Below are positions 208-23,930 of a DNA stretch of 64,000 nt, one piece after another. The notes beneath the pieces were generated by a model. That model worked only from the letters and a program-made list of their open reading frames with translations. It was not told the DNA's origin and did not search any database. Position 1 is the first letter of the stretch. The number at the start of each line of letters is the position of its first letter. This DNA comes from Candidatus Hodarchaeum mangrovi (GTDB lineage: Archaea > Asgardarchaeota > Heimdallarchaeia > Hodarchaeales > Hodarchaeaceae): positions 28,014 through 92,013 of the forward strand of contig JAEOUE010000127.1 of NCBI GenBank assembly GCA_016839515.1, given 5' to 3'. The position numbers and the translations under genes were made by a program.

Positions 208-1011
208 GTGTTTTTCGTCACTCCTTCTTTTTTAAAAGAATTTAATAGATGTCCTCATGCTTTTTATTTACGAAGAATACAACACTTTGAATTAGGCTTC
301 TCAAAGGAAGTTGAAATGGAAATAATAGCATATCGAAAGATAGAAGAATATACGAAAGCATTTTTCACCATCTTATTTAATCCACCTTTAAGTTACTCAG
401 TTATCACTCATAGAGAAGAGATATCATATCTCTTAAAGGCAAGATTAACTTACAATTACTCATTAGAATCTTTGAACGAATTACTTGTTAGAAAATGTTT
501 TAGCTTTCTCGGATGGTTAATACAAGAACTTTGGGTTATGTTACCAAAAAATAAAAGACACCAAAAATATATTCATCCAAATAAAATTTATGAACTAATA
601 TTATCAGATCGATTGAAATTAAAAGGATGCCCTTCTCTAGTATTTTTACATCCAAATAATACTTATTTGCTTGTAATTCAATCTTTTAACTCGAATCCAA
701 TCTCAAATCGTCTTATAATTTCACAAGCTGCCATCTATTCCCAAATCTTATGGCAAAATGACAAAATAAAATCGAATGATTTTCTATATATCGATTATCA
801 GAGCAATCTAATCATTTATAGGAAATTTGTGCAAAAAGACTATCAAATTCTTTCAGATTTCCTTCAAGAATTTCATGATACCATTGAAGATGAATTATTT
901 GATTCTCCAAACACTAATAATTGTAAAACATGTGAATTCAGGCTAATATGTGAATTAACTGGTGATAAAAATCTCAACAATAATAGACTTAATTTTAGAA
1001 GGTTTTCTTGA
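208..1011 (+). CDS. Cas4/AddB-like PD-(D/E)XK-fold protein with Fe-S cysteines, nuclease site degenerate
   Basis: N-terminal RCPHAFY and C-terminal CKTCEFRLIC (1+3 Cys pattern); QAAIY motif retained; the expected GxxD and (D/E)xK residues read GCPS and VIQS. Confidence 0.7.
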   Translation: MFFVTPSFLKEFNRCPHAFYLRRIQHFELGFSKEVEMEIIAYRKIEEYTKAFFTILFNPPLSYSVITHREEISYLLKARLTYNYSLESLNELLVRKCFSFLGWLIQELWVMLPKNKRHQKYIHPNKIYELILSDRLKLKGCPSLVFLHPNNTYLLVIQSFNSNPISNRLIISQAAIYSQILWQNDKIKSNDFLYIDYQSNLIIYRKFVQKDYQILSDFLQEFHDTIEDELFDSPNTNNCKTCEFRLICELTGDKNLNNNRLNFRRFS

Positions 1012-1834
1012 TTTTCTTGTCTGGTACGCAGGAGAATTAAGTGGACCAGATATTATACTTATAGTATCTCATCAAGTATCTTACTATATAATTCTACAAA
1101 TAAAATTAATCCTATTCCCTTTCATAAAACGACTATTAAATTATTTATTTTTTCCATTTAGATGGATTCATGTCTATTTCCATATAACTGCTGCTAAAGA
1201 AATTTTAAATGAATTAGAGAAGAAAATAGAACAAGAAGATTTGGACCCGCTTCTTGATTCAGCCAATCTACGAGCTAGCTTAATTTCGGGATTAGATATT
1301 CCTGATGAGAACCCTGGATTGCTATTATCATTAAATAGATTGGAGCATGCAAAACGTGTAGTTTTTGCTCCTAGTCGCTTTGCATTAATAGCTTTTATCG
1401 CATATCTCTTAGTTTCACCTATTCTATTATCTAACAAAATTGTTTCTACCCAGCTTGGGGCACTAATTCATTTATATTTTTTCATTGGAATTTTTAGCGT
1501 TTTGATGCCTTCTATTAATGATTATTACTTTCTCTTCCATACTCTTCTTTTAGAGATGAATATTCCTTCAAAATATTTTTATATGTCAATTATTGTCTAT
1601 ATAATAGTCATTTTCGATACAGTTTGGCGAACTACTGACTTTTTTCTCTCTGTTTTAATAGGAACTATCTTTTTTATTGCCTATTTAATAGGATTATTTA
1701 TAATAGGGTATTTGGGTCAAATCAGGAAAGGAAAGAATTCAGCTATCTATTGGCTTCCTCTAAAAAGCTTACGAGAACTTATCTCGAAAGAATCAGAAAT
1801 AGATTTCCTTTCAATCGAAGATTTGGATCTATAA
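962..1834 (+). CDS. Multi-pass membrane protein, unknown function
   Basis: 290-aa ORF with several hydrophobic helices; HVYFH near the N-terminus loosely resembles a degenerate HExxH. Confidence 0.7.
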   Translation: MIKISTIIDLILEGFLDFLVWYAGELSGPDIILIVSHQVSYYIILQIKLILFPFIKRLLNYLFFPFRWIHVYFHITAAKEILNELEKKIEQEDLDPLLDSANLRASLISGLDIPDENPGLLLSLNRLEHAKRVVFAPSRFALIAFIAYLLVSPILLSNKIVSTQLGALIHLYFFIGIFSVLMPSINDYYFLFHTLLLEMNIPSKYFYMSIIVYIIVIFDTVWRTTDFFLSVLIGTIFFIAYLIGLFIIGYLGQIRKGKNSAIYWLPLKSLRELISKESEIDFLSIEDLDL

Positions 1835-1842
1835 ATTTTCTT

Positions 1843-2547
1843 TTATGGAAGCAGAGAGCTTTGAGATGATCCTATCGATATGTTAAACAATTTTAATGTA
1901 ACTCTAAAGGTGGTATTTACTTTTTCAATAAAAAAATGAATAGGTGAGAAATCATGCAATAAGGTTCCATAAATATTCGAATTTTCGGATTTATTTTCAA
2001 TATCTGTTTTGTAGACAGTTGTTAAGATTGGTACTTTAGAATTTTCAGCAAGATATTTGAGATCAAGAAGATGTTCGAATATTCTTCTACTCCAGAATAT
2101 TTTTTCTTTGTGAAAATACTTTAGAAAATTAAGTGGAGATCCAAATAACGTATCAATAATGATCAAATTAAACAAACAATTTGATTCTGTGAGTTCACGA
2201 AAATAAATTAGCTGTTCTAAAAGTGTTTCAGGACTGATAAAGGTTATGCTTTCTAACTTATCAGATGATAAGAATCTGGAAAAAATAGAGTAGCGAAGAT
2301 TCCCAGAATGATCACAATAAAGAATTTTGATTTTTCTATCTTTTTTAAATGCCTGTAAAATACCTTGAAGACAAAAGCGCGACTTTCCACCCCCTGTATC
2401 TCCCCAAATAGTATGAATAAATCCAGGAATTAAACCTCCAATCTTCATATCAATAATATCAATCTCGAGAGGTATCGCATTTGTAGGATTCCAAAGTGAT
2501 ATTAGATTGTCAAATGACTGTAAATGTAAAGTGACCAGCTCATTCAC
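1843..2547 (-). CDS. RadB/Rad51-paralogue-like RecA-fold ATPase
   Basis: IGGLIPG, Walker A GDTGGGKS, ILYCD, Walker B LIIIDT; no N-terminal HhH domain. Confidence 0.8.
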   Translation of the reverse strand: MNELVTLHLQSFDNLISLWNPTNAIPLEIDIIDMKIGGLIPGFIHTIWGDTGGGKSRFCLQGILQAFKKDRKIKILYCDHSGNLRYSIFSRFLSSDKLESITFISPETLLEQLIYFRELTESNCLFNLIIIDTLFGSPLNFLKYFHKEKIFWSRRIFEHLLDLKYLAENSKVPILTTVYKTDIENKSENSNIYGTLLHDFSPIHFFIEKVNTTFRVTLKLFNISIGSSQSSLLP

Positions 2548-2971
2548 CTATTAAATCAATAGTTGTTGAATTAAGAATTTGAATTGACTTATTTCGGGTC
2601 AATAACAGAATATTAAAAGTTTCGGATAATTTTGAAAGATAAAATTCAATTTCAGGAAGAATATGATAGTAATGGAACATATTAATACAAATCGTAAAAA
2701 AATTATACTTTTTAGAACTTTGTAAATTTCCAGATTTAATTATTTCATTCAATAATTCTTCTGAATGTACATTGAGAAAGAAAAAATGAGAGGGACTAAA
2801 ATCTTGCGTTTCAAAGAGTGTATAAAATTCAGGAAGTTGAATGATTTGATAATCTATCCACAAGATTTTAGGAATTAGTAAATTTGACAGTTTAGTAAAT
2901 AAATGTTTAAGAGAATCCTTATATTCTCCAATCAGTAAATAAATATGTTTTTGGGGTAATGCTTCATCCAT
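2540..2971 (-). CDS. Hypothetical protein, possible truncated inactive RecA-fold protein
   Basis: IYLLIGE...KILWID pattern resembles RecA strands 1-2 without GKT/S; overlaps the start of the RadB-like gene. Confidence 0.5.
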   Translation of the reverse strand: MDEALPQKHIYLLIGEYKDSLKHLFTKLSNLLIPKILWIDYQIIQLPEFYTLFETQDFSPSHFFFLNVHSEELLNEIIKSGNLQSSKKYNFFTICINMFHYYHILPEIEFYLSKLSETFNILLLTRNKSIQILNSTTIDLIGE

Positions 2972-2981
2972 TCAAACTATC

Positions 2982-4022
2982 TCAATAATTATTATCTTGA
3001 TTTACTGGATTTAGAATTTCCTTTTCCTGTTGAACCACCATTTCTTGGTAAGCATAATAATAAGGAAATACAAACAAAATAAAAATTAAAACGGGCAACA
3101 TGATCCATCCTGGGATTGGGTGGTTAATAGGAAGAAAATTAGAGTGAGAATCTTTCTGAAATACTCCAGATAGTTTTAATTCTATCCTAACTGCTTTGGC
3201 ACTATCAAATCCATTATAATCTGGCTTAATTAAAATAAGAACTTCATTTATTGGATTAATTTCGGAACTAGATAAGGAATAATTGATAATAAGGGTATGG
3301 TCACCGATTCCATAATACCTTTGCTGATTAACTGTCACTGAATCAATTTCCAATTGGGTAAGTGTGATACGTAATGTACATAGCAATGAAAAATCAGTGG
3401 GAGGAGGTACTACAAATAAATATGAATGAATCGCTAGACTTTTCTCAAGAAATGTATATTTTTCTGGTTCAACAATAAAATATTGACTTGCTGGAAATAT
3501 ATCCAGAGAACTTAATTCCAACGGATTATAATAATCCATAGTAATAAGCTCAGCATTTATAATTTGAAAATTAATATTGGAAGTTCTCCAATTTATAGTA
3601 GGGTCTAATATTAAAGTTATAGAAAGCTTTAAGGAGTTTTCTGTTACACTCCCGAGAGGAAGATACAGTTGTTGAGCTAAAGAAAATTGATAGGATTCAC
3701 TTTCAGATAGAGAGATTTTCTCCATCAAATAAAATGTTCTTGTTTTGAATTGACCATTAATCTTTGCTTGAAGGGTTACACTACTTATAGGTTCACCATG
3801 GTTCTGAACAGTAAAATTTAATAAAACTATTTCTCTAGATCTAGTTAAAAGTACACTACGAATATATTCTTGATCCACTGTCGAAATTTGTTCATTAATA
3901 TAAAGATTATATCGATCTATTACATTCAGATTAGTTTGTTCATTCCCTAGAACAACTTGGATACCAGAACTTACTAAAAAACTAATAACAAGAAAAAAAG
4001 TAAAAATTTCGATTCTTTTCAT
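2982..4022 (-). CDS. Secreted beta-rich protein with C-terminal transmembrane anchor
   Basis: N-terminal signal peptide; IPGW followed by a TM helix near the C-terminus. Confidence 0.75.
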   Translation of the reverse strand: MKRIEIFTFFLVISFLVSSGIQVVLGNEQTNLNVIDRYNLYINEQISTVDQEYIRSVLLTRSREIVLLNFTVQNHGEPISSVTLQAKINGQFKTRTFYLMEKISLSESESYQFSLAQQLYLPLGSVTENSLKLSITLILDPTINWRTSNINFQIINAELITMDYYNPLELSSLDIFPASQYFIVEPEKYTFLEKSLAIHSYLFVVPPPTDFSLLCTLRITLTQLEIDSVTVNQQRYYGIGDHTLIINYSLSSSEINPINEVLILIKPDYNGFDSAKAVRIELKLSGVFQKDSHSNFLPINHPIPGWIMLPVLIFILFVFPYYYAYQEMVVQQEKEILNPVNQDNNY

Positions 4023-4594
4023 TAAATAATTCCCTCTAAAGTTATTAATATTAAACTAGAAAGATTTAGTGCTATTAAGAATAATCCTCCCCTAAAGAAA
4101 AAGGAGTTTGTTCTTTTTTCATTCTTATTCCACTTTGATAATGAGAAATACCGCCCATTCGAGAATTCTTTCCATACATAGTGCTTGACAGGATGGTTTG
4201 AAAATATCGATGTTTTTCCAAGAGGGATACCTGGAGCTGAAAAAGCGTCTAAAATCAAGTGGGAAATCCAGCTGATGAGAGCTAACCAAATTAGAACAGA
4301 AAAATCGGATCCCTCAGTTATATAGATTAATGGAAGAAAATATAGGACTGTTAGAGGTGAATGGGAGAGAGGATGACGATATTGAGTTAATGTAAATCGT
4401 TGGCTAAGATTAATTCTCTCAAATTTTGGACTAAAACCCAGATTCATATCAAGATAATTAGGAACGAGACTAAGAAAACCCAAAGGATATGATAGTAGAA
4501 AATAGAACCATAATTCAATAGTATCATGAATAAACGTTGACAGAAAGATGTTCATTAGCGCAACAGCGAAGGTTAGATGAGTTTGATTTTTCAT
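4022..4594 (-). CDS. YdjM-like membrane metal-dependent hydrolase
   Basis: Motifs QTH, PNYLD, RHPLSHS, SHLILD..S..G, plus TM helices. Confidence 0.75.
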   Translation of the reverse strand: MKNQTHLTFAVALMNIFLSTFIHDTIELWFYFLLSYPLGFLSLVPNYLDMNLGFSPKFERINLSQRFTLTQYRHPLSHSPLTVLYFLPLIYITEGSDFSVLIWLALISWISHLILDAFSAPGIPLGKTSIFSNHPVKHYVWKEFSNGRYFSLSKWNKNEKRTNSFFFRGGLFLIALNLSSLILITLEGII

Positions 4595-4598
4595 AGGA

Positions 4599-7500
4599 TT
4601 AATCTCGCCTCCTTCGTTTAAATAATCTTCCCCCTATAACTGTAATTGCGAAAATAATACCTGAAAGACCTATTTCAAATAATGGATTGTTTGTAAAATT
4701 ATTAATGAAGGATTTAAGATTTGAGGAACTTTCCTTGATATAAGAAGAACTCATTGATTCAGTTGTAGATATAAAAATAGTTAAAGAGTCTAAAACCAAC
4801 TCACACTCCTGATTTATATCATCAAATACTCTAATAATAACAGAATAATACCCCTGAGCTAAATATATACCAAAAAAGTAATGAGTTCCATTGTAGGATG
4901 GATTATTAAATCTTAATTCATTAATATCAATAGTAATAGACTTAACTGCATAATCATCAATAATTTCAAACGCAAAATACCAGTACTGCTCAAAATATCT
5001 ATCATTTTCTGGAATATGATTGATGGAATATGATTTGATTTGAGGAGGATAATCAGAGTTATTGAACAATCCGTGATATGCATTAACACATCCAGTTATG
5101 TCCTCAATGAAAATAGAATAGTTCCAAACTCCTGGATAAAGATCAGGGGTTTCAATTTCCCAATCAAAGTATAATCCAGAAAGCGATGAATACGTTAAAA
5201 CTCCTCTGCCCTGTATTTCTGAAGTTGAATTAGATAATATTATCTTAACAGATTCAGTATTAATAGATGAATTTTGTTTAAAACCCCTTAGTTCTAATAT
5301 AAATGAATTTCTACTAACAATAAAACTATCAATTTCAATGTTGGGAGCATACCAAGTTGATTTGTAAAAGAATTTTCCAGATGGTTGAGAATTATCCCAT
5401 GGATACCAAACTAGAATTTCAAAGGTATAATTATTTGGAGATAAAGGCAAGTTTGATACCCAACGATTCCAAAAAGGTTCAAAAGTTAATGGATAGATTG
5501 AATCATCAATAATTAGCTTAACCTGATCCACAGGAAGTGAATAAGAGTTGATTCTTAAAAAAAATTCATAAAACGATCCTTGGTAATTTATACTAATAGT
5601 ATCTAGGATAGGATCAAGTGGATTCCATTCAAGATTGAATAACCGAAGGTCATATTTGTTATTCACTGTACAGGCAAAAATGGTAATTTCCCAAATTCCT
5701 GGAGTGGGTAAGACAATTGAAGCACGATAATTTTGGTAAAAAGAACTCCAGTGAAGAATCGATATCATGCTTCCATTGATAAGAACACCAGCTTGAGCAA
5801 AGTCAGGATTAGCAACAACCTCTGCTTGGATTAAATAACCCCCAGTTTCATTTATTTTTGTTAGTGTGGGATTAAGTAGTAATTCAATTGCTTCAACAAT
5901 GGAAAAAATAATTTTTTTTGTTTTGAAGTTTCTTGCTTCATCAAATGCCCAAACTTGTAATTCATAGGAACCAAAACTGAGAACTAGCGAAATTGGCTGA
6001 TTATAGGTCTGATTATAGGTATGAACTCCTATAATATTCCATAGAATTGTTGTACCATTCGTAGAAAATGAAATCAAGATTTCCCCTGTATAGGATTGAT
6101 TATGGGGGGAATAGACTTTAAGACTTGGAGGGATAGTATCAATACTGAAATATGCACGCTTTATCACATAATTCCCAGCAGGGTCAGATACTTTCACTGT
6201 GAGATTGTATGAGCCATCATCCAAGGTGAGTTCCATTTCGTTATAACCAATAATTTCTCCATCTAGGAACAATTCTACTATATTTTCGTCTGTTAGATAT
6301 TTAATATGTACATTTTTCTCTCCATAGGTACAGTTTGTTGGAGAAAGAAGAGCTAATGAAGGAGAAGTTGTATCCACTGAAAAAGAAACAAACTCGTAAG
6401 TGATCATACCATCTTGATTAAAACCAAACACATGTAGGGTATAATCACCTTGACCTAATGATCGATAAGTCGTTTTCATCCAAGTAGAATTCAAACTATC
6501 AATAGGTTCAATAAAATAAGAATAATTATTCGCATTTCCCGAGAGAGCGATCTCAATTATTGAACCATAAATTTGGTTTAGAGGGGATAAAATTATCACA
6601 TTTGATGGGACTGAATGGATTATAATAATAAAAACACTACTAGTTGATTGTGAATAATAATTGGTAGAACTTAAGTTAGTTTTAACCCTAATATAATAAA
6701 TTCCTGGAGTAGAAAATAGTACGGAAAAATAAAAAGCTCCACTGCCTGAAGAAGAATCAACTTGGGTATTTGTTCCATTAATTTCAAGAATAATATCCTG
6801 ATTTGGAATAGGACCCGATACTTCACCAATTACTATCCCATCTATATTAGTGGATAAGTTAACATAAGTTTCACTTGGAACAGAAAGAGAAAGAAAGAGT
6901 TCTTCAAAAACTGTTATAGAAAGAGTCTTTTCATGATCATAAACGAAAGGGGCGGTAGAAATTACTTTAAGAGTCTTAATTCCGCGAGAAAAAAAGGTAT
7001 AAGAATAATTATACACACCTGCAGGTTGCCAGTCTTTCCATAACTGATTTGTAATCCAAATCTGAAATTGTTCATTACAGGTTACTTTAAAATAAAAAGG
7101 GTTGTTGACATTTCCATTAGTACTTGCTTGAATTGTAATCTGAGGGATCATCCATATCTCTGAATAGTCATATTTTGTATTAAATGGACCAACAGCTCGT
7201 ATGGTAATAGGTCCTTTATATAAAGTAGGTACAGACCAATTATAAGATCCAAATCCAGTTGCATTAAGTTTGATGGAACTGATTGGAGTCCATACAGATT
7301 CTCCACTTATTTGCCAAGAAAGATTCACAAGATCACTCAATCCACCAGCTAGTAAAATCACCGTCCATTTTCCTCCTACAATCTCTGAATCTATAAAGAT
7401 CGATAATGGAGGTCTTACGGTGAAGCTAAGAATAGGTTTATTTATAGATGAATAGAATAATTTGACTGGATTACCATTGTACTTGAACTCAATTAAATGT

Positions 7501-9392: not shown

Positions 9393-9634
9393 TAGTAATC
9401 TGGATTTTAATTTAAATATTAATAATCTAAAAATTATATTAATATATAAATACTATAAATATAAATCAATAATCAAGTAAAATATCCAATTGTCAACTAG
9501 TTTGAATATTTAAAACCCCCCACTATCCTAAATCTTAAATTGAGAATAAAAAATATCAATCTTTCACAGAGATTAGTAATTATAGATTTAATAGGACATA
9601 GGAATTGAATTAATCCTTTTTACAATTTTTTTGA

Positions 9635-9681
9635 TATATAAAGCAAGTGCTTAATCTAGTATGAATTATAATTTTAATTCA
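9635..9681 (+). promoter_or_regulatory. Putative radA TATA box and downstream inverted repeat
   Basis: TATATAAA at 9635-9642; TGAATTA-N6-TAATTCA at 9662-9681. Weak because the region is very AT-rich. Confidence 0.3.
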
Positions 9682-9682
9682 G

Positions 9683-10714
9683 ATGTGGAAAAAAATGGCA
9701 AAAGCACAGACAATAATAGATGAAGAAGTCTTAGATGAAATTGAAGAACCAAAGAAAAGGAAAAAGACTAAAGAAGTAACGAATGAGACATTAACTTTCT
9801 TAGAATCTCTAAATGGAATTGGGCCAACAACTCGAAAGCGTCTTGAAGATGCAGGTTTTGGATCCAAAGAATCGATCGCACTAGCTACTAGAGCGCAATT
9901 GACTGAGATTTCGGGGATTGCAGAGAAAACTGCAACTTTACTAATTCGAGAAGCTCGTGCTCAATTTGATCTTGGTCTAAAGAAAGGAATTAGTTATCAA
10001 GAAGCAGCAAAAAAACGAATCAAATTACAATCGGGTTCATCTGTGTTTGATGAATTATTAGGCGGAGGATTTGAGTCTGGATCTATAACAGAATTAGCAG
10101 GGGAAAATGGTTGTGGAAAGACTCAAATTGTTCATCAGTTAGCAGTCAATTGCATTAATCAACTCAAAAAAGATGTAGTATGGATAGATACAGAAGGAAC
10201 ATTCCGTTTTAATCGTATTAAAGAGATGGCAGAGGATTTGGGACTAGATCATGAACATGTTTTAGAACGAATAACGATTGGACGAGCATATAATTCTGAA
10301 CATCAAATGGCGCTTACTGAAGAAGCCATTACTATGACCCCGAATATTGGTTTGGTAATTGTAGACAGTTTAATGTCAAACTTCAGGAATGAATTCGCTG
10401 GAAGAGGAACATTAGCAGAACGTCAACAATTAATTGGGAAACACCTCGCATTTATCACAAAACAAGCTGAAATAATGAACTTTGTAGCTGTTGTTACTAA
10501 TCAAGTTGCAGCTAAACCGGATGCTATGTTCTTTGGTGACCCCAATAGACCTGTCGGAGGCAATGTTGTTGGTCATACAGTTACAACAAGGATAATGATC
10601 CGTAAAGGGAAGGGGGAAAAGCGAACAGCAACTTTAACTAAAAATCCTGAATTACCAGATGGGAAAATTGAATTCGCAGTCATTGCTGAAGGCATCAGAG
10701 ATTATAAAGGATAA
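9683..10714 (+). CDS. radA: RadA/Rad51 recombinase (start possibly 9695)
   Basis: N-terminal HhH (LNGIGP, ISGIAE), Walker A GENGCGKT, IDTEGTF, Walker B VIVDS, L1 FAGRGTLAERQQ, TNQV, L2 PVGGNVVGH. Confidence 0.95.
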   Translation: MWKKMAKAQTIIDEEVLDEIEEPKKRKKTKEVTNETLTFLESLNGIGPTTRKRLEDAGFGSKESIALATRAQLTEISGIAEKTATLLIREARAQFDLGLKKGISYQEAAKKRIKLQSGSSVFDELLGGGFESGSITELAGENGCGKTQIVHQLAVNCINQLKKDVVWIDTEGTFRFNRIKEMAEDLGLDHEHVLERITIGRAYNSEHQMALTEEAITMTPNIGLVIVDSLMSNFRNEFAGRGTLAERQQLIGKHLAFITKQAEIMNFVAVVTNQVAAKPDAMFFGDPNRPVGGNVVGHTVTTRIMIRKGKGEKRTATLTKNPELPDGKIEFAVIAEGIRDYKG

Positions 10715-13304: not shown

Positions 13305-15058
13305 TGGTATTAAAAGAGAGTATTTTACCCCCTTCTCTGCAATTGTTTCCTTATCAATCATTAAGAAATTACCAATCACAATTCCTTCGATTTGTAGAAA
13401 ACAATCAAAAAGTAATAATTCATGCACCAGTGGGATTTGGAAAGACTATTATGGCTTTAATTTCAAGTCTTCCCCTAGTGAAGCAAGAAAATTATCAATT
13501 AATCATATTTGTCAGAACAAAAGCCCAGGTCTTTCGTGTTTTCTTAAATGAGATTTATAAAATTGCCAATTCACGGAAATATGGTTATTTAACTGCAGTT
13601 CCTCTAATCTTAAAATCGGATCTATGCCTAAAAATTGAAGAAATTCCTCAATTCCATAAAGGGATCTGTTCATCCATTCGTTGTCCACATCTTGAGCAAG
13701 CACGTTCAATTCCTGAAGAAGATTTACCAACAATAGTTGAACAAGTGACTATAACATCCCATGAAAATGATAAAATTTCTATTGAAACTTTTCAAAATGC
13801 TTTTCGTGAATTTGGTTGTCCTTATTATGTGATTAAAAGATGTATTCCTTATGCAAATATTATTGTAACTACTCAGACTTATATCCGATCTAAAAACCTT
13901 CAACCAATGTTTTCTGAGTTGTTAAATAAAAGTACATTCTCTGCTAAAATAGCAATTATAGATGAGGGTCATAATTTTTCTGCTGATATTGAAGCTGAAA
14001 TTTCACTAAGTGATCTTCAACGAGCTTCTTCAATTATACCACTGAAGATTTTCGATACTCTTCAAGATCTAATATATTTTCATAAAGGAATGGTTGAAAG
14101 ACCATTCGGATTGTCTGTTGCAGCAATCGATGCTTTTCTTGAACATGAAAAAAAAATAACTCTAATAGAAAAGACCCAACTATTAAAAATAAAAGAATTT
14201 ATCCAATCTCGAGGAGATATATGGATTTCTGAAGAATCCAAGATAATACAATTAAACCCTTTTCCCCAATCAGTATTTGAGTTTATTAACCCTTTTTTCC
14301 AACGAATAATCCTTATGTCAGGGACCTTCCAACCAATCAAATCCTATAAACTATTATATGGAATCAATCATTATGCAAATTTATCTATTCCCTCTGATTT
14401 TCAATTTAGTTTTAATAGCATAATGTACAACAGACGATTCACCTCAAGATTTACTCAACGTTCCGCTAAAACATACGAAAATATGGTAAATGTTATTCAA
14501 AGGCTACATGAATCAAATCCATTTCATACAATAGTGTTTACAACCTCACATGAATTCAAACATAAATTAATTACTCATCTTCAACTCCCTAATTATTATG
14601 TAGAAAAGATTGATTCACCACCCCATTTCTTAGATGAACTATCAGATAAAAAACACGAATTAATACTTGGAGTGCTTGGCGGACGCTTATCTGAAGGAGT
14701 AGAAATTCTGAATCACGACAATCGAAGTCTATTAACTTTAATTATCATAGCAGGGATGCCCTATCCACGTCCTGATGCTACAAATAAATTACTACGTAAC
14801 CTTTATACAAGAAAATGGGGAATTAAAATGGCGCAACACATTACTACACTACCATTGACACGGACTATATCACAAGCAATTGGTCGAGGGATCCGTTCTG
14901 AATCAGATTTTGCTGCTAGTTTAATTCTTGATTATAGAGCAATTCGTCTCCGTCCTATGCTCCCACCAACTAAGATTTTCAAGGATCTTTCTTCCTTGTA
15001 CAATGCCTATGATCTTTTTTATGCTAAAATGCGCAAAATTTTCTCACTAAAGGATTAA
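13304..15058 (+). CDS. xpd: XPD/Rad3/DinG-family Fe-S helicase
   Basis: Q motif, APVGFGKT, Fe-S Cys (DLC, CSSIRC, GCPYY), DEGH, SGT, SEGV, GMPYP, QAIGRGIR. Confidence 0.9.
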   Translation: MVLKESILPPSLQLFPYQSLRNYQSQFLRFVENNQKVIIHAPVGFGKTIMALISSLPLVKQENYQLIIFVRTKAQVFRVFLNEIYKIANSRKYGYLTAVPLILKSDLCLKIEEIPQFHKGICSSIRCPHLEQARSIPEEDLPTIVEQVTITSHENDKISIETFQNAFREFGCPYYVIKRCIPYANIIVTTQTYIRSKNLQPMFSELLNKSTFSAKIAIIDEGHNFSADIEAEISLSDLQRASSIIPLKIFDTLQDLIYFHKGMVERPFGLSVAAIDAFLEHEKKITLIEKTQLLKIKEFIQSRGDIWISEESKIIQLNPFPQSVFEFINPFFQRIILMSGTFQPIKSYKLLYGINHYANLSIPSDFQFSFNSIMYNRRFTSRFTQRSAKTYENMVNVIQRLHESNPFHTIVFTTSHEFKHKLITHLQLPNYYVEKIDSPPHFLDELSDKKHELILGVLGGRLSEGVEILNHDNRSLLTLIIIAGMPYPRPDATNKLLRNLYTRKWGIKMAQHITTLPLTRTISQAIGRGIRSESDFAASLILDYRAIRLRPMLPPTKIFKDLSSLYNAYDLFYAKMRKIFSLKD

Positions 15059-15064
15059 TATTAA

Positions 15065-16909
15065 TTAATGTTTTAATAATATCTTAAGAACTGGAAGAAT
15101 TTCATCTATTGTCATGATAGGAATACTGCAAAGATTGAATTTCCCAATAAGATTAAATAGAGTATATCGGACATCTAAACTATAATCTTTTAATACGCTT
15201 GGAATATATAAGACCTTAATCTCTTTATATTTTTCTTTTAAATCATTAAGAATATTAGAGGCTTCAGGTAATATTGAACTGATTGTTTCGGAGGTCAGAA
15301 TAAGAATAAAATCTTTTTTTTTGGTAATCAATCCTGGATACTTAGTCTTGTCTGATTTTACAATATTATAATTTTCTGAAAGGATATAGGGAATTTTTGA
15401 TTCATATAAAATTGGTGATAATCTTAATTCTATTTGATCGGATTTTTGTTCTTTTCCCATGATTTGAGACTTTAGTCTTTTATTCAAGATTTCAGGGTCA
15501 AAATTAGATTTATTCTTATTTTGAATAGAAAAAAACCGCTTTTGTTCATTTGTTCCTTTTCCAATTAAGAAAAATCGTGGAATCTCAACATTTAATGTAT
15601 TTAATGTTTCTATTGTGTTAGTTGCGACATCAAAGGCAATAATAATAAGGGAATGTGATGCTAAATAGTTATTAGCAGTATTTGCTATACATATAGTTAC
15701 TTTTCTTTCTGTAAAGGGTAATAAGTACCGTTTCAAATCTATTTCATTAAACGAGCTTATTGGATGTTCAACATATAGAACTCGTAATCCGATTTCTTGA
15801 AAAGTCTTCTGAAGAAATCTTGCATTGTAATAATTATGTGTTAAAACTAAAATACCCTCAGAATATTGGGAAATTAGTTTAAATAACACTTGGATCTTAG
15901 GATGGGGAATCTCCCTGTTTAAATGGATATATTCTCTCAATTTTTGAATTTTTAGATCATTTAAAAACACTGAAATCGCTTTTTGACCTAATTGATCATC
16001 TATTTGCTTTGACTTCAAACGAGATTCTAAATTATCAAAATAGTCTATAACACCTTTAAAACCCTGAGAGATTACCAAGTGTAGTAATGAATAGATTCGA
16101 TAGAGATTTCCTGTTTGAATCATTATTTTTGTATTTCCTTCCCTCTTTAAACTTTCATGAATAGCTTTAACTTGTCTAATAGGGGCTTTTAAAGTAAGAT
16201 TAATCCCACTATACTTAAGATGGTCTATCTCGAATTCCCTGAGCTGATTAAGCAGATCTAATATGAAAAAATACTCTTTCGGATAAGGAATGTAATAGGG
16301 GTGAATATTTACCTTTGATTCTCCAGTTTCATTCTGAAGTCTTTTTACTTCTTGTAACCCCAAAGCATTACACACTTGGAAAAGTCGCTCATAATTGTTA
16401 ATTCGGGTACACCCAATAAGTCGAGATTTTGATAATTTTTTAGTTATATAACGTATAGAACTTGAACCAACACATCTTTCTGCAGACAAAATAAAGATAA
16501 GGGTAAATTTATCACAATTTTCTAGATTTTTTTCTTTTAAATCATTTTTCAATGTTTTAGGAGTTGTTAATATTATCGAATAATTTTGATAATCTTTTTT
16601 ACGAGCATTTGGTAAAATTGATCCGTTCACTGCTGTAATACGATGGTCAATTAAGCCAGAAGTTTTCAATCCATTTAGGATATAATTCTGAAAATTAGGT
16701 TTTAGGATAACTAATATCTTTTGATTTTGCTTGTTTTTCTGTTTTAACATAAAAAGAGATACTAAGCTCATCATTCGTAACAAATTAGAATTTTCGCGAT
16801 AAATAACTAATATATTATGGTCAAGAAGACTTGGTAAGAGTAATTGCTCTTCAAGTGAAGGAATAAATCCTAGATTATTTATCAAATTCACGCTTTCATC
16901 CATACTCAT
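15065..16909 (-). CDS. Hef/FANCM/XPF-like protein with inactivated SF2 helicase
   Basis: TTPKTLKNDL (motif Ib) and HPKIQVL are Hef-like; Walker A reads NILVIYREN and the DEAH position reads SAERC; possible degenerate ERCC4-like C-terminal domain. Confidence 0.7.
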   Translation of the reverse strand: MSMDESVNLINNLGFIPSLEEQLLLPSLLDHNILVIYRENSNLLRMMSLVSLFMLKQKNKQNQKILVILKPNFQNYILNGLKTSGLIDHRITAVNGSILPNARKKDYQNYSIILTTPKTLKNDLKEKNLENCDKFTLIFILSAERCVGSSSIRYITKKLSKSRLIGCTRINNYERLFQVCNALGLQEVKRLQNETGESKVNIHPYYIPYPKEYFFILDLLNQLREFEIDHLKYSGINLTLKAPIRQVKAIHESLKREGNTKIMIQTGNLYRIYSLLHLVISQGFKGVIDYFDNLESRLKSKQIDDQLGQKAISVFLNDLKIQKLREYIHLNREIPHPKIQVLFKLISQYSEGILVLTHNYYNARFLQKTFQEIGLRVLYVEHPISSFNEIDLKRYLLPFTERKVTICIANTANNYLASHSLIIIAFDVATNTIETLNTLNVEIPRFFLIGKGTNEQKRFFSIQNKNKSNFDPEILNKRLKSQIMGKEQKSDQIELRLSPILYESKIPYILSENYNIVKSDKTKYPGLITKKKDFILILTSETISSILPEASNILNDLKEKYKEIKVLYIPSVLKDYSLDVRYTLFNLIGKFNLCSIPIMTIDEILPVLKILLKH

Positions 16910-17192
16910 GCTTTGACTCTTCCCTGGTTTTTAACCTGTTATCAATTGGTCTATTAAGAAACTGGTGAAAGTCTTCTATTTCAGATGACTGGTCTAGATT
17001 TTTAATACAGCTTTTATGTGCACTACAGGTGATTACTTTAGCATTTCTGATGACTAAATCGGGAACCCGACGATTTAACAGAAAATAACATACGCCCCCT
17101 ACTCCATAATTACCAAACTCACAAATTAAACACAATGGTGAATTAAGAAAGATTTCATCAATATATGGTTGAAGATGTAATTGATAGGTCAT
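16896..17192 (-). CDS. Small Cys-rich, possibly metal-binding protein
   Basis: CLIC, GVC, CSAH..C; GGTGAG RBS upstream; overlaps the start of the Hef-like gene. Confidence 0.65.
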   Translation of the reverse strand: MTYQLHLQPYIDEIFLNSPLCLICEFGNYGVGGVCYFLLNRRVPDLVIRNAKVITCSAHKSCIKNLDQSSEIEDFHQFLNRPIDNRLKTREESKHEYG

Positions 17193-17200
17193 GAACTCTC

Positions 17201-17222
17201 ACCTAGATTTTTTCATCTAGGT
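17201..17222. promoter_or_regulatory. Perfect 8-bp inverted repeat in a divergent promoter region
   Basis: ACCTAGAT-N6-ATCTAGGT, overlapping the RBS of 16896..17192. Confidence 0.45.
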
Positions 17223-17303
17223 ATAGAACTTCTAGTTAATATATCAAAAATCAAAATTATTATTATTTAAGCTAATTTTCCAATACTAACTTGGAGAACT
17301 TAA

Positions 17304-17825
17304 ATGTTAACTGAAACTTATCTGATAAAAGTTCTTGACACAATTCTAAAGGAACAGGTGGAATTTCTTTCTTTTCCAGAGCTGCAGATTACCTCAAAGA
17401 ACCTTGATTTAAAGAAAATTGTTGAAAAAGATCAAATCCGAATTGATCTAGCAGCATTAAATAATTTTGATGGATCTATCTATTTCTTTGAAGCAGAGAC
17501 TACACTTTATAGTTTTCATCCAATATCCTATCGACATTTTTGTGACTTTTGTTATCTAGTTTGTCCAGCAGAAAGCTTTGACCTCCTTGATTCTGAATCA
17601 AAACAGCAGCAAATTAACTGGGCAGATGAAATGGGTGTAGGAATCATCACAATAACCTCAGATCGGAATGTTAACATCCGATTACGAGCGAAACGTCAAG
17701 AATTAACACCAGTGATTCGAAAAGAAGTTATAAGAATGATGGATCAACGCACTCGTATTAATTTTTCAACAATTCCTCTGTGGGAGAGAACTTTTGCCAA
17801 AAATTCTGAAGGAATGGGAGAGTAG
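17304..17825 (+). CDS. MmcB-like PD-(D/E)XK-fold protein
   Basis: FPE...RIDLAAL...FFEAE, YRHFCDFCYLVCP, GVGII; Glu where Lys is expected. Confidence 0.6.
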   Translation: MLTETYLIKVLDTILKEQVEFLSFPELQITSKNLDLKKIVEKDQIRIDLAALNNFDGSIYFFEAETTLYSFHPISYRHFCDFCYLVCPAESFDLLDSESKQQQINWADEMGVGIITITSDRNVNIRLRAKRQELTPVIRKEVIRMMDQRTRINFSTIPLWERTFAKNSEGMGE

Positions 17826-17848
17826 AAAGTACGCCACGAAAAGCCAAG

Positions 17849-18319
17849 ATGTCGGTTGGAAACACAACTGATAGAAAAAAAGCAGATTTATTCAATTCTA
17901 TTGAAGATTTAATTAAAAAAGGGTATATCCAAGATGCTATCGACCATCTCGAATATCTTTATCGAACAACACCATCTATCAAACAAACTATCCTTCTGAA
18001 ATTCGCAAAGCTTTATACTCAAATCGCACAACCTGAAAAAGCACTTCTATATCTTCAGAAAATAATTCCCACTTCTGATTTACAGACAAATGAATTAATA
18101 TTTGAAAATTTAATCAAACTCGACAAGGAACGTCAAGCAATAATGTTTATCGCACGATCAGACCTTTCTATAAACCAAAAAACCATTCTCCTTAAAAATA
18201 ATGGTCTTTTAAAAGAGCCTTCAGTCTTAATACAACCCGTAATCCTTCAATGTTTGAAATGTAATTCCTTCCTGTTCTTCTTGAACAATAAATTAACCTG
18301 TCTAACCTGTAGATGCTAG
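17849..18319 (+). CDS. TPR-like protein with C-terminal zinc ribbon
   Basis: TPR-like helices; CLKC...CLTC at the C-terminus. Confidence 0.7.
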   Translation: MSVGNTTDRKKADLFNSIEDLIKKGYIQDAIDHLEYLYRTTPSIKQTILLKFAKLYTQIAQPEKALLYLQKIIPTSDLQTNELIFENLIKLDKERQAIMFIARSDLSINQKTILLKNNGLLKEPSVLIQPVILQCLKCNSFLFFLNNKLTCLTCRC

Positions 18320-18337
18320 CTTCCCTCAAATACTCCA

Positions 18338-19513
18338 TTAATAGTTCTCATTAATTATTGATTTTTCTTTTTGGATCATTTCACAGAGGTTTTCATCTTT
18401 TTTTTTGCTAATCTCTTCTATTAACCTATTAATAAAACTTTCATCAAATTTCTCATCTTTTTCATCCGATGATTTTAAATACTGAACTTTAGAAAAATCA
18501 ATTACAACATTCGGTTCAGACGCAGTAGATGATTCACCTGATAGGTTAGAGGGAGCCTGTTTGGCAATAAGATCTTCAGAAAGAATTGAGGTTGTTAGAG
18601 GCAGGGGTAGGTTCCCCTCTTTCTCTAAATAAGTATTAAAATATGTATTATTATGATTTTTAATATTTTGTACTTCTTCAATTGGGATGTTTACCTCTGG
18701 ATCAATCAATCCAGAATTAGCTTTCTCATTAGATTGATTTAGATCTTCTAATATGAATTCTTCCTCTGAATCAGGAAAAAGGTCAAAATTTTTTTCAATT
18801 TCAGATTTATTATCTTTAGTGTTAAAATTATCAGTTTCAGAGTCTAAAATTTTATTATTTGTGATATTGGGCTCATTTGGAATTATAATTTCATGAGGGG
18901 ATTTTGGGGGAGAAGGTGGATCCTGATTATCAATTGCTAAAATACGTGAATTAAATTTGAATTCTGATAATCCTGATTTAGATACGGCTGAAATCACTAA
19001 TCCAGGGATAACTTTTAGTAGAGTTGTCTTAAAATCTTCAAGACGTTCTTTTAGGGATAGATGAAATTCACCTAATTGTCTAGGATTTTTTATTAATTGC
19101 AGATAATTCAGATTAGGAAAATCAAGTGTCAGGTTAAAAATTGTTTTAAACGCGTCCTCTGAAACTCGGAATTCAAAGTTCGTAAGATTTTTTACTACAG
19201 ATAGTCGAAAATTCTGCGGTTTTGCATCTACTTGAAAATCTATTATTACTGTTGTTCGGTTCTCTTTAAAAGAATAGATTATCATAGCTCCTGGAATTTC
19301 TTCAGGATAGAAAATTTTTTCACTCATTTCAAGATTAGAAAAAGAAAAAAACTGATGTTGCTGTTTTAACTCAATTTCCTCTAATATAAGCCCTATAAAG
19401 TACGCTACACCTCCTGTTAAAAAGACAATTATAATTCCAGTTTCACTAGATAAATAAATGACTACTCCGAAGAGAAATCCAATTATTGTAGTTAATGTAC
19501 TTCGACAGATCAT
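18338..19513 (-). CDS. Membrane-anchored protein (2 N-terminal TMs, alpha/beta domain, acidic disordered tail)
   Basis: Hydrophobic N-terminal hairpin; PPSPP linker; D/E/N/S-rich C-terminal half. Confidence 0.7.
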   Translation of the reverse strand: MICRSTLTTIIGFLFGVVIYLSSETGIIIVFLTGGVAYFIGLILEEIELKQQHQFFSFSNLEMSEKIFYPEEIPGAMIIYSFKENRTTVIIDFQVDAKPQNFRLSVVKNLTNFEFRVSEDAFKTIFNLTLDFPNLNYLQLIKNPRQLGEFHLSLKERLEDFKTTLLKVIPGLVISAVSKSGLSEFKFNSRILAIDNQDPPSPPKSPHEIIIPNEPNITNNKILDSETDNFNTKDNKSEIEKNFDLFPDSEEEFILEDLNQSNEKANSGLIDPEVNIPIEEVQNIKNHNNTYFNTYLEKEGNLPLPLTTSILSEDLIAKQAPSNLSGESSTASEPNVVIDFSKVQYLKSSDEKDEKFDESFINRLIEEISKKKDENLCEMIQKEKSIINENY

Positions 19514-19554
19514 CTCAAATAATATTGATCTTTTTCCTTATATATTCAGAAAAA

Positions 19555-22302
19555 TCAATGTAAAGCCTGTAAAATATCATTATAATCATCCCCAATACTT
19601 GAAACACCACCTGAAACGATCTCATCTGCCAAGAGTTTTGCGCTCTGTTTATCTAATTGTGAATTATTATTACTACACCGTGGTAAGAAAACACATCGGG
19701 GACAACCTTCTTTACAAGAACAATCAAGGATAGAAATAATTCGATTAAACAATTCTTCTAAGTGTTGAAGTAGCATTGCACACACCCCTGATCCAGATCC
19801 TTGATCAAAAAGTAAAATATAACCAGAAGGTAACAATGTTAAACCTCCAATCTCTGTTAATTGTCCCCCAATAAAAGGAAGACTAGCATGAAGAAGAACA
19901 TGAACCAATGTGTGCAAACCGGAAGCTAAACTGGATTGATCTTGGATATGGAGCTGTGGTACTTTAAATAATATTCCTTTAGATCGTGATGAATAAAAAA
20001 GGGGATCCTGTAGCTTTTGGACACTGGTACCAGAGGGAATTTCCAAGGTATAACCATAAACAGTCCATAATATTTTGACTTCAACATAACCAGCTTCGAT
20101 TCCTAAAACGACCTGTTTCTTCAAAATAGAGAGGATCTCTGGTTTCATAGAAGAGAGGGGAAAAGTGGATCCCCAAACATTTTTTGGTTTAATTAATTCA
20201 GCACTTCCTCTTAAACCACTAAAATAAAAACTAGAAACTTTATAGCGGATTCCTCCTGCGTAATAGAATGCTCCAGGGTGTAGTTCAAACATCGCAAGTG
20301 GCATGGCTCTTCGACCAATAGTTTTTCCTCCCTTCAATCGGATAAAAACTTCATGATTTTTTCCACGAATTGAATATCTCTGAGCTTTTTCTCTACCAGC
20401 TTCTGTTGGAGTGAGCCATATCTCATCTTTCACCATTAAGTAGTTCTCTTTGACCAATCTATTCAATACAGTATAAAAAGGAGGAAATTCTAAGGGACTA
20501 ATTGATATATCGCGATCTAACGCCGTACAAAGGAGCTGATGTTCTGCAACAAATGGATTTGAAGGATCGAAGTACACATCCTCAACATCAGTATAATATG
20601 TTGCTGGGTTTTCCAGATAAAATTGACTTATTGGATCATCAGCATTCAGGAGAATAATAGCAATAGCTTCTTGACCTGATCGTCCAGCACGACCAATTCG
20701 CTGCATAGCACGATTAACAGCAATTGGAGGAGTTATTACAACATTGATATCTCCAATATCTATCCCTAATTCAAGGGTTGGTGTTGCTAAAAGTACATTC
20801 AATAACCCTTCACGAAAATTATGTTCGACCTCCTCTCTCATGCTTTTTGATAATCCTGCACGGTGTATAGCAACCTTTCGATCTTTTCCTCCAAGTTTTT
20901 GATAAAGGAATTCAACCTTACGATGGCTATCTTGAAAGATTAACATCTTACCATAAGATTTGATACTATTAACTAAAGACACTAAGCTATCGGTTGTAGA
21001 TATAGATGGGTAAGGAGAAAGTATCAAAAAATGCAATTTACCTCTTTTTCCATTTTCGCATTCTATTACCTTAATTGGTCTCTCAAGCAACATTGATACG
21101 AAGTTTGATGCATTTGCTACAGTAGCTGAGGAACCAATGAATTGAATTTTGGTTTGAATGACTCTTTCTAACCTTTTCAAGATAAAATACATATTGCTTC
21201 CTAAAGTTCCCGAGTAAGAATGTATTTCGTCTAGTATGACTAGTTTCACTGATGCTAATAGTTCTTGAAATCTTAAAGCGTTTTTTCCTATTCCTAAATG
21301 ATAATTTAATATATCTGGGTTCGTGATCAGAATTTCAGGAGGATTAACATAAATTTTTTTTCTTTGATAATGACTAGTATCACCATCAAATACACTAACT
21401 GTTAATCCAACCTTTTCTGCGAGATCCACAATCTTTCGATGTTGATCCTTTGCAAGTGCTTTCATTGGATAGATAAGTAGCAACTGAACTCCATAACCTT
21501 TGAATCTTTTCACTTTCTCTAAAGCTGGAAGGAGAAATGCTTCTGTTTTTCCATTTCCTGTTGGTGCTACAATACAAACATCTTCACCTCGAATAATAAT
21601 TTCAAATGCTTCTTTTTGAAACTTAAATAAGTGAGATATACCTTTTTCAATAAAAAATCGTTTTATCTCTGGATCTAGATCTGCCTTATCAATTGAAATC
21701 CCATTTTCTCCTGACTGTTCTGGGAAAAGACGGTAATCGACAATTTGATGTTGATTATGATTTATAATTTTTCTAATTGGGAATGGAATCTGTTCCATAG
21801 GAATATTATAGATAACAGCAAATGAATTTAAATTTAAAACTGTGGAAGGTGCAGTCTTTTTCAGTTGTAATCCATCTTGAAGTCCCAATTCTTGAACTTG
21901 TGGAATAGGCTTCAATTTTCCTGAACTTTTCAAACGTAGTTTTGTTGCTTTTTGTAATTGTGGACTTCCTCCTCCGAAAGAATAGTATTTTCTAAGACAA
22001 ATTTCACCTTTCTGTATATCTTTTAACTTGAAATACAATTTACTTAATTCTTTCCAAGTTTGGCTATGAGTTCTATCAATTTCTAGAATGCGTGCATAAA
22101 ATTTCTTAGCTAATCCAACCTGTTTTAATTTAATTAATAATTGAGCGCATTCACTTAGAAGATCAAGAGGTATGCTATCTACTTTGAGAAATCGTTGAAC
22201 TCGTTCTAAAAAATCTCTAACATTCTTTGTTTCTTGATATTCGGTATACCATTCGTAATATTGGGTCCAATAAGGGTGCTCCTTTACTTTTAGTGTTGAC
22301 AT
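19555..22302 (-). CDS. Hrq1/YprA(MrfA)/SftH-family DEAH helicase with DUF1998 and N-terminal TPR
   Basis: FQKEA, APTGNGKT, YPMKALAKDQ, DEIH, SAT, LELGIDIG, QRIGRAGR; C-terminal CSCKEGCPRC; TPR helices in the first ~110 aa. Confidence 0.92.
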   Translation of the reverse strand: MSTLKVKEHPYWTQYYEWYTEYQETKNVRDFLERVQRFLKVDSIPLDLLSECAQLLIKLKQVGLAKKFYARILEIDRTHSQTWKELSKLYFKLKDIQKGEICLRKYYSFGGGSPQLQKATKLRLKSSGKLKPIPQVQELGLQDGLQLKKTAPSTVLNLNSFAVIYNIPMEQIPFPIRKIINHNQHQIVDYRLFPEQSGENGISIDKADLDPEIKRFFIEKGISHLFKFQKEAFEIIIRGEDVCIVAPTGNGKTEAFLLPALEKVKRFKGYGVQLLLIYPMKALAKDQHRKIVDLAEKVGLTVSVFDGDTSHYQRKKIYVNPPEILITNPDILNYHLGIGKNALRFQELLASVKLVILDEIHSYSGTLGSNMYFILKRLERVIQTKIQFIGSSATVANASNFVSMLLERPIKVIECENGKRGKLHFLILSPYPSISTTDSLVSLVNSIKSYGKMLIFQDSHRKVEFLYQKLGGKDRKVAIHRAGLSKSMREEVEHNFREGLLNVLLATPTLELGIDIGDINVVITPPIAVNRAMQRIGRAGRSGQEAIAIILLNADDPISQFYLENPATYYTDVEDVYFDPSNPFVAEHQLLCTALDRDISISPLEFPPFYTVLNRLVKENYLMVKDEIWLTPTEAGREKAQRYSIRGKNHEVFIRLKGGKTIGRRAMPLAMFELHPGAFYYAGGIRYKVSSFYFSGLRGSAELIKPKNVWGSTFPLSSMKPEILSILKKQVVLGIEAGYVEVKILWTVYGYTLEIPSGTSVQKLQDPLFYSSRSKGILFKVPQLHIQDQSSLASGLHTLVHVLLHASLPFIGGQLTEIGGLTLLPSGYILLFDQGSGSGVCAMLLQHLEELFNRIISILDCSCKEGCPRCVFLPRCSNNNSQLDKQSAKLLADEIVSGGVSSIGDDYNDILQALH

Positions 22303-23901: not shown

Positions 23902-23930
23902 TCCACCCTATTCATCTTCTTGGTGAGTAT

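Follow-up and report, generated by a model that had tools for sequence, protein, structure and literature searches.

In the archaeon Candidatus Hodarchaeum mangrovi (Heimdallarchaeia; Hodarchaeales), intact enzymes of recombination and repair are encoded side by side with catalytically dead paralogues of other DNA enzymes and with membrane and cell-surface proteins. The 16 genes concerned lie between positions 208 and 22302 of the window, by which we mean the whole 64,000-nucleotide stretch of contig JAEOUE010000127.1 (positions 28,014 to 92,013, forward strand) that was analysed (Table 1). The coordinates of their open reading frames (ORFs) are those of a first-pass annotation made from the sequence alone, and the names Cas4L, TM290, RadBL, s143, sec346, big1597, RadA-c, p881, HefL, s98, p173, TPR156 and TM391 were coined in the present analysis. 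Five apparent transcription units can be recognised: Cas4L then TM290 on the forward strand; an envelope operon on the reverse strand with big1597, the YdjM-like gene, sec346, s143 and RadBL; RadA-c, p881 and XPD on the forward strand; s98 and HefL on the reverse strand; and p173 with TPR156 on the forward strand, after which the MrfA-like helicase and TM391 are listed on the reverse strand. Overlapping start and stop codons had been proposed, and stops and starts do overlap or abut at five junctions (962/1011, 2540/2547, 4022, 13304 and 16896/16909). The G+C content is even across the cluster, at 29-35%. The evidence below indicates that the cluster is real and that evolution maintains its dead members as functional genes.

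Table 1. Genes of the cluster, in order of position in the window.
Gene	Description	Position	Strand	Basis
Cas4L	Cas4/Exo5-like PD-(D/E)XK protein	208..1011	+	Pfam, NCBIfam, PADLOC, alignment
TM290	Polytopic membrane protein, no known family	962..1834	+	At least 4 hydrophobic segments
RadBL	RadB/KaiC-like RecA-superfamily ATPase, Walker A and B intact	1843..2547	-	NCBIfam, alignment
s143	Small predicted RadBL partner, possibly a RecA-fold remnant without P-loop	2540..2971	-	hhalign, atlas, complex prediction
sec346	Bitopic envelope protein, N-terminal signal/transmembrane segment and C-terminal transmembrane segment	2982..4022	-	Hydropathy
YdjM-like	Membrane protein	4022..4594	-	PF04307, transmembrane segments
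big1597	Giant surface protein with immunoglobulin (Ig)-like domains, N-terminal signal, C-terminal membrane anchor	4599..9392	-	Pfam, hydropathy
RadA-c	Order-specific RadA paralogue, motifs intact	9683..10714	+	Pfam, NCBIfam, tree
p881	HerA-fold protein (by model) without Walker A, C-terminal helical/winged-helix extension, 858-881 amino acids (aa)	10728..13304 (open from 10659)	+	AlphaFold2 model, Foldseek
XPD	XPD/Rad3-family Fe-S helicase, motifs intact	13304..15058	+	Pfam, NCBIfam, alignment
HefL	Hef paralogue, dead helicase core and dead ERCC4-like C-terminal domain	15065..16909	-	NCBIfam, alignment
s98	Small Cys/His-rich protein, gene overlaps HefL start	16896..17192	-	Alignment
p173	PD-(D/E)XK-fold protein nearest 3dnx, invariant acidic triad	17304..17825	+	Model, fold match, alignment
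TPR156	TPR-like, C-terminal CxxC...CxxC zinc ribbon	17849..18319	+	Weak NCBIfam TPR matches, alignment
TM391	Two N-terminal transmembrane helices, long acidic low-complexity tail	18338..19513	-	Hydropathy
MrfA-like helicase	TPR-MrfA/YprA (Hrq1)-type DEAH helicase, MZB zinc domain, motifs intact, 915 aa	19555..22302	-	Pfam, alignment

The first-pass annotation had read several of these proteins as homologues with eroded catalytic motifs, a view that orthologue alignments bear out for HefL and Cas4L. HefL aligns with the helicase core and insertion domain of archaeal Hef (NF010337, 1.9e-20 across the helicase part), and its long forms align with the ERCC4 domain as well. Among 19 aligned HefL sequences, of which the one from genome G011 is truncated at its N terminus, motifs I (GKT), II (DEAH), V and VI (QxxGRxGR) are lost in all 18 that cover this region, whereas GKT, DEAH and QxxGRxGR are all kept both in the genome's canonical Hef, which served as the reference (656 bits, cut-off 610), and in a Hef paralogue from another Heimdallarchaeial family, f4. 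HefL further differs from archaeal Hef in its nuclease half: the ERCC4-aligned C-terminal domain of the long forms reads PGF...LLL in place of GDY...ExK, the nuclease-like domain is absent altogether in 7 of the 19 orthologues, and HhH2 was found in none of them. Both the helicase and the nuclease motifs are thus dead. The small protein s98 has a CxxC...C...CxxH pattern that is conserved in 20 orthologues. Cas4L gives modest family matches (PDDEXK_1 in Pfam, 1.6e-4; Cas4 in PADLOC, 3.8e-9; TIGR00372 (cas4), 1.4e-8 and 34.7 bits, under the cut-off of 65). In an alignment of 9 orthologues with the Exo5 of family f4, it keeps the four iron-sulfur (Fe-S) cysteines (an N-terminal Cys and CxxCx5C; one orthologue is without the last) and QxxxY, while the motif II Asp is deleted and [DE]xK has become Q[ST][FY][RN] in 9/9. 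In-frame stops had suggested that Cas4L is a decaying pseudogene; this idea was dropped, as the ORFs are intact and the stops lie past the natural ends of the orthologues.

For p881, previously described as an eroded HerA/VirB4-like protein, the fold is supported by structure prediction. The protein has no match in Pfam, NCBIfam or PDB by sequence, including a PDB profile search, and a contig search with p881 alone as query returned no relative; its 48 public relatives are all annotated as 'hypothetical protein' and carry no Pfam domain. PF01935 (DUF87) matches five other loci of the genome, not p881. An AlphaFold2 model built from a 14-sequence alignment (predicted local distance difference test, pLDDT, 70.8; predicted template modelling score, pTM, 0.50) suggests an N-terminal beta domain like the HAS domain, a RecA-like core and an extra C-terminal helical domain of ~270 aa. 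All top Foldseek matches of this model are HerA chains (E 1.7e-10 to ~1e-7; best matches PDB 8zis, 4d2i and 9x1m), followed by VirB4/TrwK. The predicted likeness to HerA goes together with three differences, namely the missing DUF87 sequence match, the additional helical domain and the loss of Walker A: the place of the P-loop reads 'CGSxNxE' with no GK[ST], the place of Walker B reads 'VLTHAxEF', and Walker A is found at the P-loop place in 0/25 proteins of the p881 family. This family extends beyond the genus, since the ~1040-aa proteins that f3 and f4 encode in their own clusters are homologues of p881 (hhalign over 495 columns gives a probability of 97.1 and E 5e-11, compared with 0.63 and 0.04 for controls), a comparison that is significant only with alignments on both sides and not for the p881 profile against a single f4 protein. 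The start of p881 is more likely the ATG at 10728 because its orthologues align only from about residue 24. None of NurA, Sir2 and DUF4297 was detected among the cluster ORFs in Pfam, NCBIfam and PADLOC scans. In the Ced DNA import system of Sulfolobales, too, a HerA/VirB4-fold protein adjoins membrane proteins. p881, in contrast, is ATPase-dead; as the sole HerA/VirB4-like protein of the cluster, without a P-loop, it cannot be a Ced-type motor.

Dead proteins may be relics on the way to loss or subunits with a role of their own, and a test of selection, which the first-pass annotation had named as a check, speaks for the second. Ratios of non-synonymous to synonymous substitution rates (dN/dS) were taken from the unsaturated pair G001-G016 (dS 0.2-0.5) and come to 0.066 for TM290, 0.078 for RadA, 0.14 for HefL, 0.17 for p173, 0.18 for RadBL, 0.21 for big1597, 0.28 for Cas4L and 0.42 for s143. 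The ratio for sec346 is also 0.28. For p881 it is 0.12-0.15, from more diverged pairs (dS ~1.4-1.5). The degenerate genes thus share the purifying selection seen across the cluster (0.07-0.42), by which neutral decay of dead paralogues is rejected; such selection is as expected for structural subunits.

RadA, XPD and a TPR-Hrq1-type helicase had been reported with intact motifs, and Pfam domains together with alignments of 16 RadA-c, 18 XPD and 10 helicase sequences confirm this, the Walker A/B and arginine motifs, the Fe-S cysteines of XPD and the MZB Cys cluster all being kept. RadA-c combines a Rad51 domain (PF08423, 7.9e-73) with an N-terminal HHH_5 (1.4e-12); it scores 351 bits against NF003301 (cut-off 259) and 333.9 against TIGR02236, under the cut-off of 361, and GENGCGKTQ is invariant in the 16 orthologues. 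It is one of five strong Rad51-family genes of the genome, the other four lying on contigs C125, C138, C289 and C153 (loci L001-L003 and L005). Assembly contamination is not the explanation, since the closed genome of a relative (G009) also has five. In the RadA tree, RadA-c forms an order-specific clade (support 100/100) separate from three other RadA clades of the genus; three of the five Rad51-family genes fall in closely related genus-level clades. As a side observation, one relative (L020, G007:C27) has its RadA-c orthologue in two pieces (179 and 136 aa, one in-frame TAG) and likewise its MrfA-like gene (312 and 595 aa); either the genes are broken or the assembly is at fault. XPD matches Helicase_C_2 (1.9e-18) and DEAD_2 (1.2e-9), both above the Pfam cut-offs, and scores 113.9 against TIGR00604, under its cut-off of 246.95. 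The four Fe-S cysteines and DEGH are kept in 18/18 sequences and Walker A in 17/18, the remaining one being without the N-terminal stretch. It is the only close XPD in the genome; a second DEAD_2 gene on contig C234 (L127, G000:C234:4500-9500; ORF 1457-3868, 803 aa) is DinG/YoaA/Rad3-like and lies under every NCBIfam cut-off. The MrfA-like helicase matches DEAD (1.2e-35), Helicase_C (1.2e-17) and MZB (5.5e-8), all above the Pfam cut-offs, keeps the MZB Cys cluster in 10 orthologues, has a TPR-like N terminus with a weak TPR_8 match, and scores 279 against TIGR03817, under the cut-off of 874.

Separate housekeeping copies elsewhere in the genome had been named as a point to check: there is a canonical hef, there are four further strong Rad51-family genes and there are the five DUF87/HerA-type loci, and for xpd there is only the DinG/YoaA-like DEAD_2 gene. 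Given the canonical Hef, RadA and HerA-type genes elsewhere, the corresponding cluster copies are extra paralogues.

The RadB-like ATPase, likewise expected to be intact, is a RecA-core-only protein in which GxxGxGK[ST] (G49, G52, G54 and K55) and the Walker B Asp (D132) are invariant in 10 orthologues. Its likeness to RadB is distant (TIGR02237, 5.6e-8; 32.9 bits, far under the cut-off of 172.4), and it differs from RadB in the 'DTEG' motif, whose Glu, a catalytic residue in RadA, has given way to others (for example 'DHSG' and 'DFSG'). The adjoining s143 had been proposed as an eroded small RecA-fold protein. For the fold itself there are weak leads, from hhalign against RadBL (E 0.018, probability 2.6%) and from RecA-type matches in the protein atlas (score 0.89), and what emerged more clearly is predicted binding to RadBL. 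The predicted complex has an interaction prediction score from aligned errors (ipSAE) of 0.83 (runs 0.38, 0.83 and 0.83; best control 0.01). Of 80 solved complexes 58 reach this mark, as do 2 of 110 mismatched pairs. At least 74% of contacts are common to the runs, partner pLDDT is 82 or higher, and the interface includes RadBL residues 6-16 (the N-terminal strand around F12) and the core. The prediction thus supports an interaction between RadBL and s143, and s143, possibly a RecA-fold remnant, is probably a further catalytically dead paralogue. A RadBL that pairs with a P-loop-less partner would resemble the Rad51-paralogue pairs Rad55-Rad57 and Psy3-Csm2. In contrast to RadB and to such pairs, RadBL and s143 are encoded inside an envelope operon.

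An eroded MmcB-like nuclease was the remaining claim of this kind, and here the fold stood and the erosion did not. The model of p173 (pLDDT 89.1) finds 3dnx as its best PDB match (E 6e-6, TM-scores 0.58 and 0.67), followed by other PD-(D/E)XK nucleases. A published table files 3dnx under DUF1052/PF06319 (table in PMC3424549), and the family name of PF06319 is 'MmcB-like'. By sequence p173 stands apart from this nearest fold. Even with E values as high as 1 allowed, the PF06319 hidden Markov model (HMM) matches nothing in the genome; 21 members of the p173 family scanned against Pfam give nothing consistent and no PF06319; and of its 38 relatives, found by profile search among 1.84 billion representative proteins, the 10 that were Pfam-scanned have no PF06319 either. 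A PDB profile search returned nothing significant, and the protein atlas only unnamed clusters. Its motif is D...ExE, not D...ExK. D48, E63 and E65 are invariant in 21 sequences, and together with E26, R46 and H72 they are invariant across three families, so that p173 does not look eroded; judged by these residues, it is probably an active nuclease. Of 151 genomes sampled from the phylum, 27 have the gene, and most of these belong to families f1, f3, f4 and f6 of the class. Some distant relatives (P0073, P0078 and P0085) are fused to NYN RNase, HEPN or an ArsR-type helix-turn-helix.

The secreted and membrane proteins of the first-pass annotation were also recovered, their membrane segments being called by a hydropathy scan. 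big1597 has a Big_13 match (4.6e-7), transmembrane segments at residues 13-31 and 1570-1588, and orthologues that are 40-48% identical. The YdjM-like protein just misses its family cut-off (PF04307, 1.1e-6; 28.7 bits against 29). TM290 has no Pfam or NCBIfam match and orthologues that are 42-50% identical, and those of sec346 are 27-33% identical. The envelope operon of big1597, the YdjM-like gene and sec346 is linked to DNA genes both physically and by operon structure.

To judge whether the cluster is more than a chance neighbourhood, its synteny in relatives is informative, and it is indeed conserved. Among 21 genomes of the same genus, orthologues were found for p881 in 20, HefL and p173 in 19 each, XPD in 18, RadA-c in 17, RadBL in 16 and Cas4L in 13. 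Eight relatives (G001, G004, G009, G010, G011, G013, G019 and G020) have 13 or more of the 16 genes together on a single stretch, with the order of blocks preserved. In G012, Cas4L abuts sec346, and in the sister family f2 a p881-like gene adjoins XPD. A rearranged core of the cluster recurs in two other Heimdallarchaeial families, f3 and f4, in gene orders that differ from that of the window. The f3 cluster, nearly all on one strand, holds a dead Hef-like protein (~600 aa), a RadA-like protein, transmembrane proteins, a surface protein of 2121 aa, a RadB-like ATPase, p173, a protein of 1051 aa, a SWIM helicase and XPD; in f4, XPD is grouped with an Ig-like surface protein of 1704 aa, small proteins, a RadB-like ATPase, a second Hef that is fully intact, a protein of 1034 aa and p173. 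Pfam offers no family for eight envelope-type proteins of these two clusters. In the literature searched, supplementary files lying outside the search, no description of the cluster was found.

RadA, Rad51 paralogues, XPD, Hef, MrfA/Hrq1 and MmcB-fold families point to the repair of fork-blocking or crosslink damage. As the cluster brings together members of all of these, including a Rad51-paralogue-like pair, we lean somewhat, at a little better than even confidence, towards a vertically inherited genome-maintenance cluster of Hodarchaeales, whose most likely role would be recombination-dependent repair of replication-blocking damage such as stalled forks and crosslinks. The working parts would be an extra RadA recombinase (RadA-c), XPD, the MrfA/Hrq1-type helicase, the RadB-like ATPase and the probably active nuclease p173, beside which stand the dead paralogues HefL, p881, Cas4L and probably s143. 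RadBL and s143 might form a Rad51-paralogue-type mediator for RadA-c, the helicases and p173 could carry out the chemistry, and the dead paralogues may recognise DNA structures or serve as assembly subunits. What the data show are the gene identities, the state of their motifs, purifying selection, cluster conservation and the predicted RadBL-s143 interface; we infer the pathway, the function of dead members as scaffolds and any complex other than RadBL-s143.

A number of observations weigh against this assignment. XPD may be the organism's main or general XPD, because the one other DEAD_2 gene is DinG/YoaA-like. For p881, the TM-scores of the Foldseek matches are 0.25-0.44 and the confidence of the model is only moderate; moreover, roughly half of the genus has the gene at another location. 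Of the 21 genus genomes, 5 gave no RadBL. The envelope accessory proteins of f3 and f4 have no detectable homology to those of the window, and the cluster-linked RadA-like proteins of both families are long-branched in the tree and are not RadA-c orthologues, so that recruitment of RadA paralogues apparently happened repeatedly. For some Asgard lineages, a pair of RadA clades has already been published (PMC12722695). As to variation within populations, the lack of indels in four population runs fits selection, but among 40 of 89 differences 17 are synonymous and 23 non-synonymous, too few for single genes. Finally, in a control, all 64 ORFs of the contig were set against ~110 kb surrounding the cluster in each of four relatives, and in G010, G019 and G009 collinearity reaches 10-40 kb past either end of the cluster. 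Genus-level synteny is thus to a large extent shared ancestry rather than selection for linkage, and alone proves little.

The extended collinearity is also an argument for regarding the cluster as independent units, such as a general XPD, a spare RadA, an envelope operon and a helicase, that lie side by side by genome collinearity and have no common function. Sub-blocks do relocate or vanish independently, and synteny is just as strong for the LuxE/LuxC-like genes of the flank as for those of the cluster. Nevertheless, in the distant G001 the cluster is kept exactly, with the LuxE/LuxC-like pair, whereas the flanks differ; the same family set is found together in f3 and f4 after extensive rearrangement; and we count against this explanation the stop/start overlaps, which join DNA-type with envelope-type genes at the level of operons. 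We therefore regard independent units as unlikely. As to the flanks themselves, the pair (window 22465-25403) consists of a LuxE-like acyl-protein synthetase with a weak Pfam match and a LuxC-like acyl-CoA reductase (2.8e-52), and is syntenic with the cluster in G002, G004, G010 and G019 and 11 kb off in G001. The nine ORFs just upstream of the cluster (C41:17297-28214; one of 1003 aa) are collinear 9/9 in G010 and 7/9 in G009 and G019, and not in G001.

An explanation to which we give a similarly small share of belief is surface-coupled DNA exchange or import, in which the envelope operon would bring in or hand over DNA and the recombination genes would process it, comparable to Ced/Ups of Sulfolobales. 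RadBL and s143 do share a tightly packed operon with big1597, the YdjM-like gene and sec346, and p881, where it has relocated in G006, G007 and G009, moved together with the polytopic TM290. Furthermore, in f3 and f4, despite their other gene orders, genes for giant Ig-like surface proteins and for transmembrane proteins alternate with those for RadB-like, p173, p881-family, helicase and XPD proteins. However, with Walker A missing from all 25 p881-family proteins no active translocase was found, and no pilin, secretin, VirB/Ced or competence family was detected in Pfam, NCBIfam and PADLOC scans of the cluster proteins. Some members of the genus have kept the envelope genes but not the RadBL/s143 pair, and, as described above, the envelope accessory proteins are not conserved between families. 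What nevertheless sustains this explanation, as a minority view, is that giant surface and membrane proteins are linked to such genes again and again in different families.

A defence island or mobile element of helicase, nuclease and ATPase genes, suggested by generic PADLOC matches (BrxHI/DruE-type for the MrfA-like helicase, type IV DinG for XPD, and Cas4) and by the occurrence of HerA-fold proteins in Sir2-HerA and DUF4297-HerA defence complexes, is highly improbable for a cluster that is near-universal, vertically inherited and collinear in the genus and uniform in G+C, that matches no system-specific PADLOC family, and whose nuclease-type and ATPase-type members are dead.

The cluster may have implications beyond the order. 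In eukaryotic recombination and crosslink repair, inactive paralogues such as ERCC1, FAAP24 and the Rad51 paralogues partner active enzymes, and the helicase-like domain of XPF is inactive as well. HefL would be analogous to the inactive members of XPF-ERCC1 and FANCM-FAAP24 in that it, too, is an inactive paralogue beside an active one, the canonical Hef of the same genome. Hodarchaeales are among the archaea placed closest to eukaryotes. The same design principle may thus be present in an archaeon, in proteins that can be tested: a doubly dead Hef, a P-loop-less protein of predicted HerA fold, a dead Cas4 and a predicted RecA-fold heterodimer, the dead proteins all being under selection and encoded beside working RadA, XPD and MrfA-type enzymes. 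The strangest feature is the linkage of giant surface proteins to DNA genes across several Heimdallarchaeial families. A bolder and decidedly improbable proposal would make it the key to the whole, as a dedicated cell-surface-coupled recombination apparatus in Hodarchaeales and related Heimdallarchaeia, in which adhesin-like giants and membrane partners mediate contact between cells or DNA hand-over, while RadA-c, the mediator pair, the helicases, the nuclease and pseudo-enzyme scaffolds integrate the DNA. If true, the lineage nearest to eukaryotes would have a prokaryotic precursor of sex-like exchange, and its dead Hef/HerA/Cas4 logic would parallel XPF-ERCC1, FANCM-FAAP24 and the Rad51 paralogues.

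Some minor features of the cluster may be added. Contigs of two runs from different studies (X12 and X19) join position 15517, within HefL, to 3009, within sec346, with 32 other letters between, and in run X13 position 18509 is joined to 3495; these joins may be rearranged relatives or assembly chimeras. Two intergenic regions share a CTAG-centred motif, which occurs as ATACTAGAAA in 7 of 17 big1597/RadA intergenic regions of relatives (window 9393-9682) and as TACTAGAT in 7 of 20 regions upstream of s98 (the s98/p173 intergenic region, window 17193-17303). Genome-wide the motif is not enriched (33 occurrences against 34.9 expected from composition), on which ground it was rejected as the mark of a regulon and lends no support to the damage induction that had been suggested; at these two sites it is probably a conserved promoter element.

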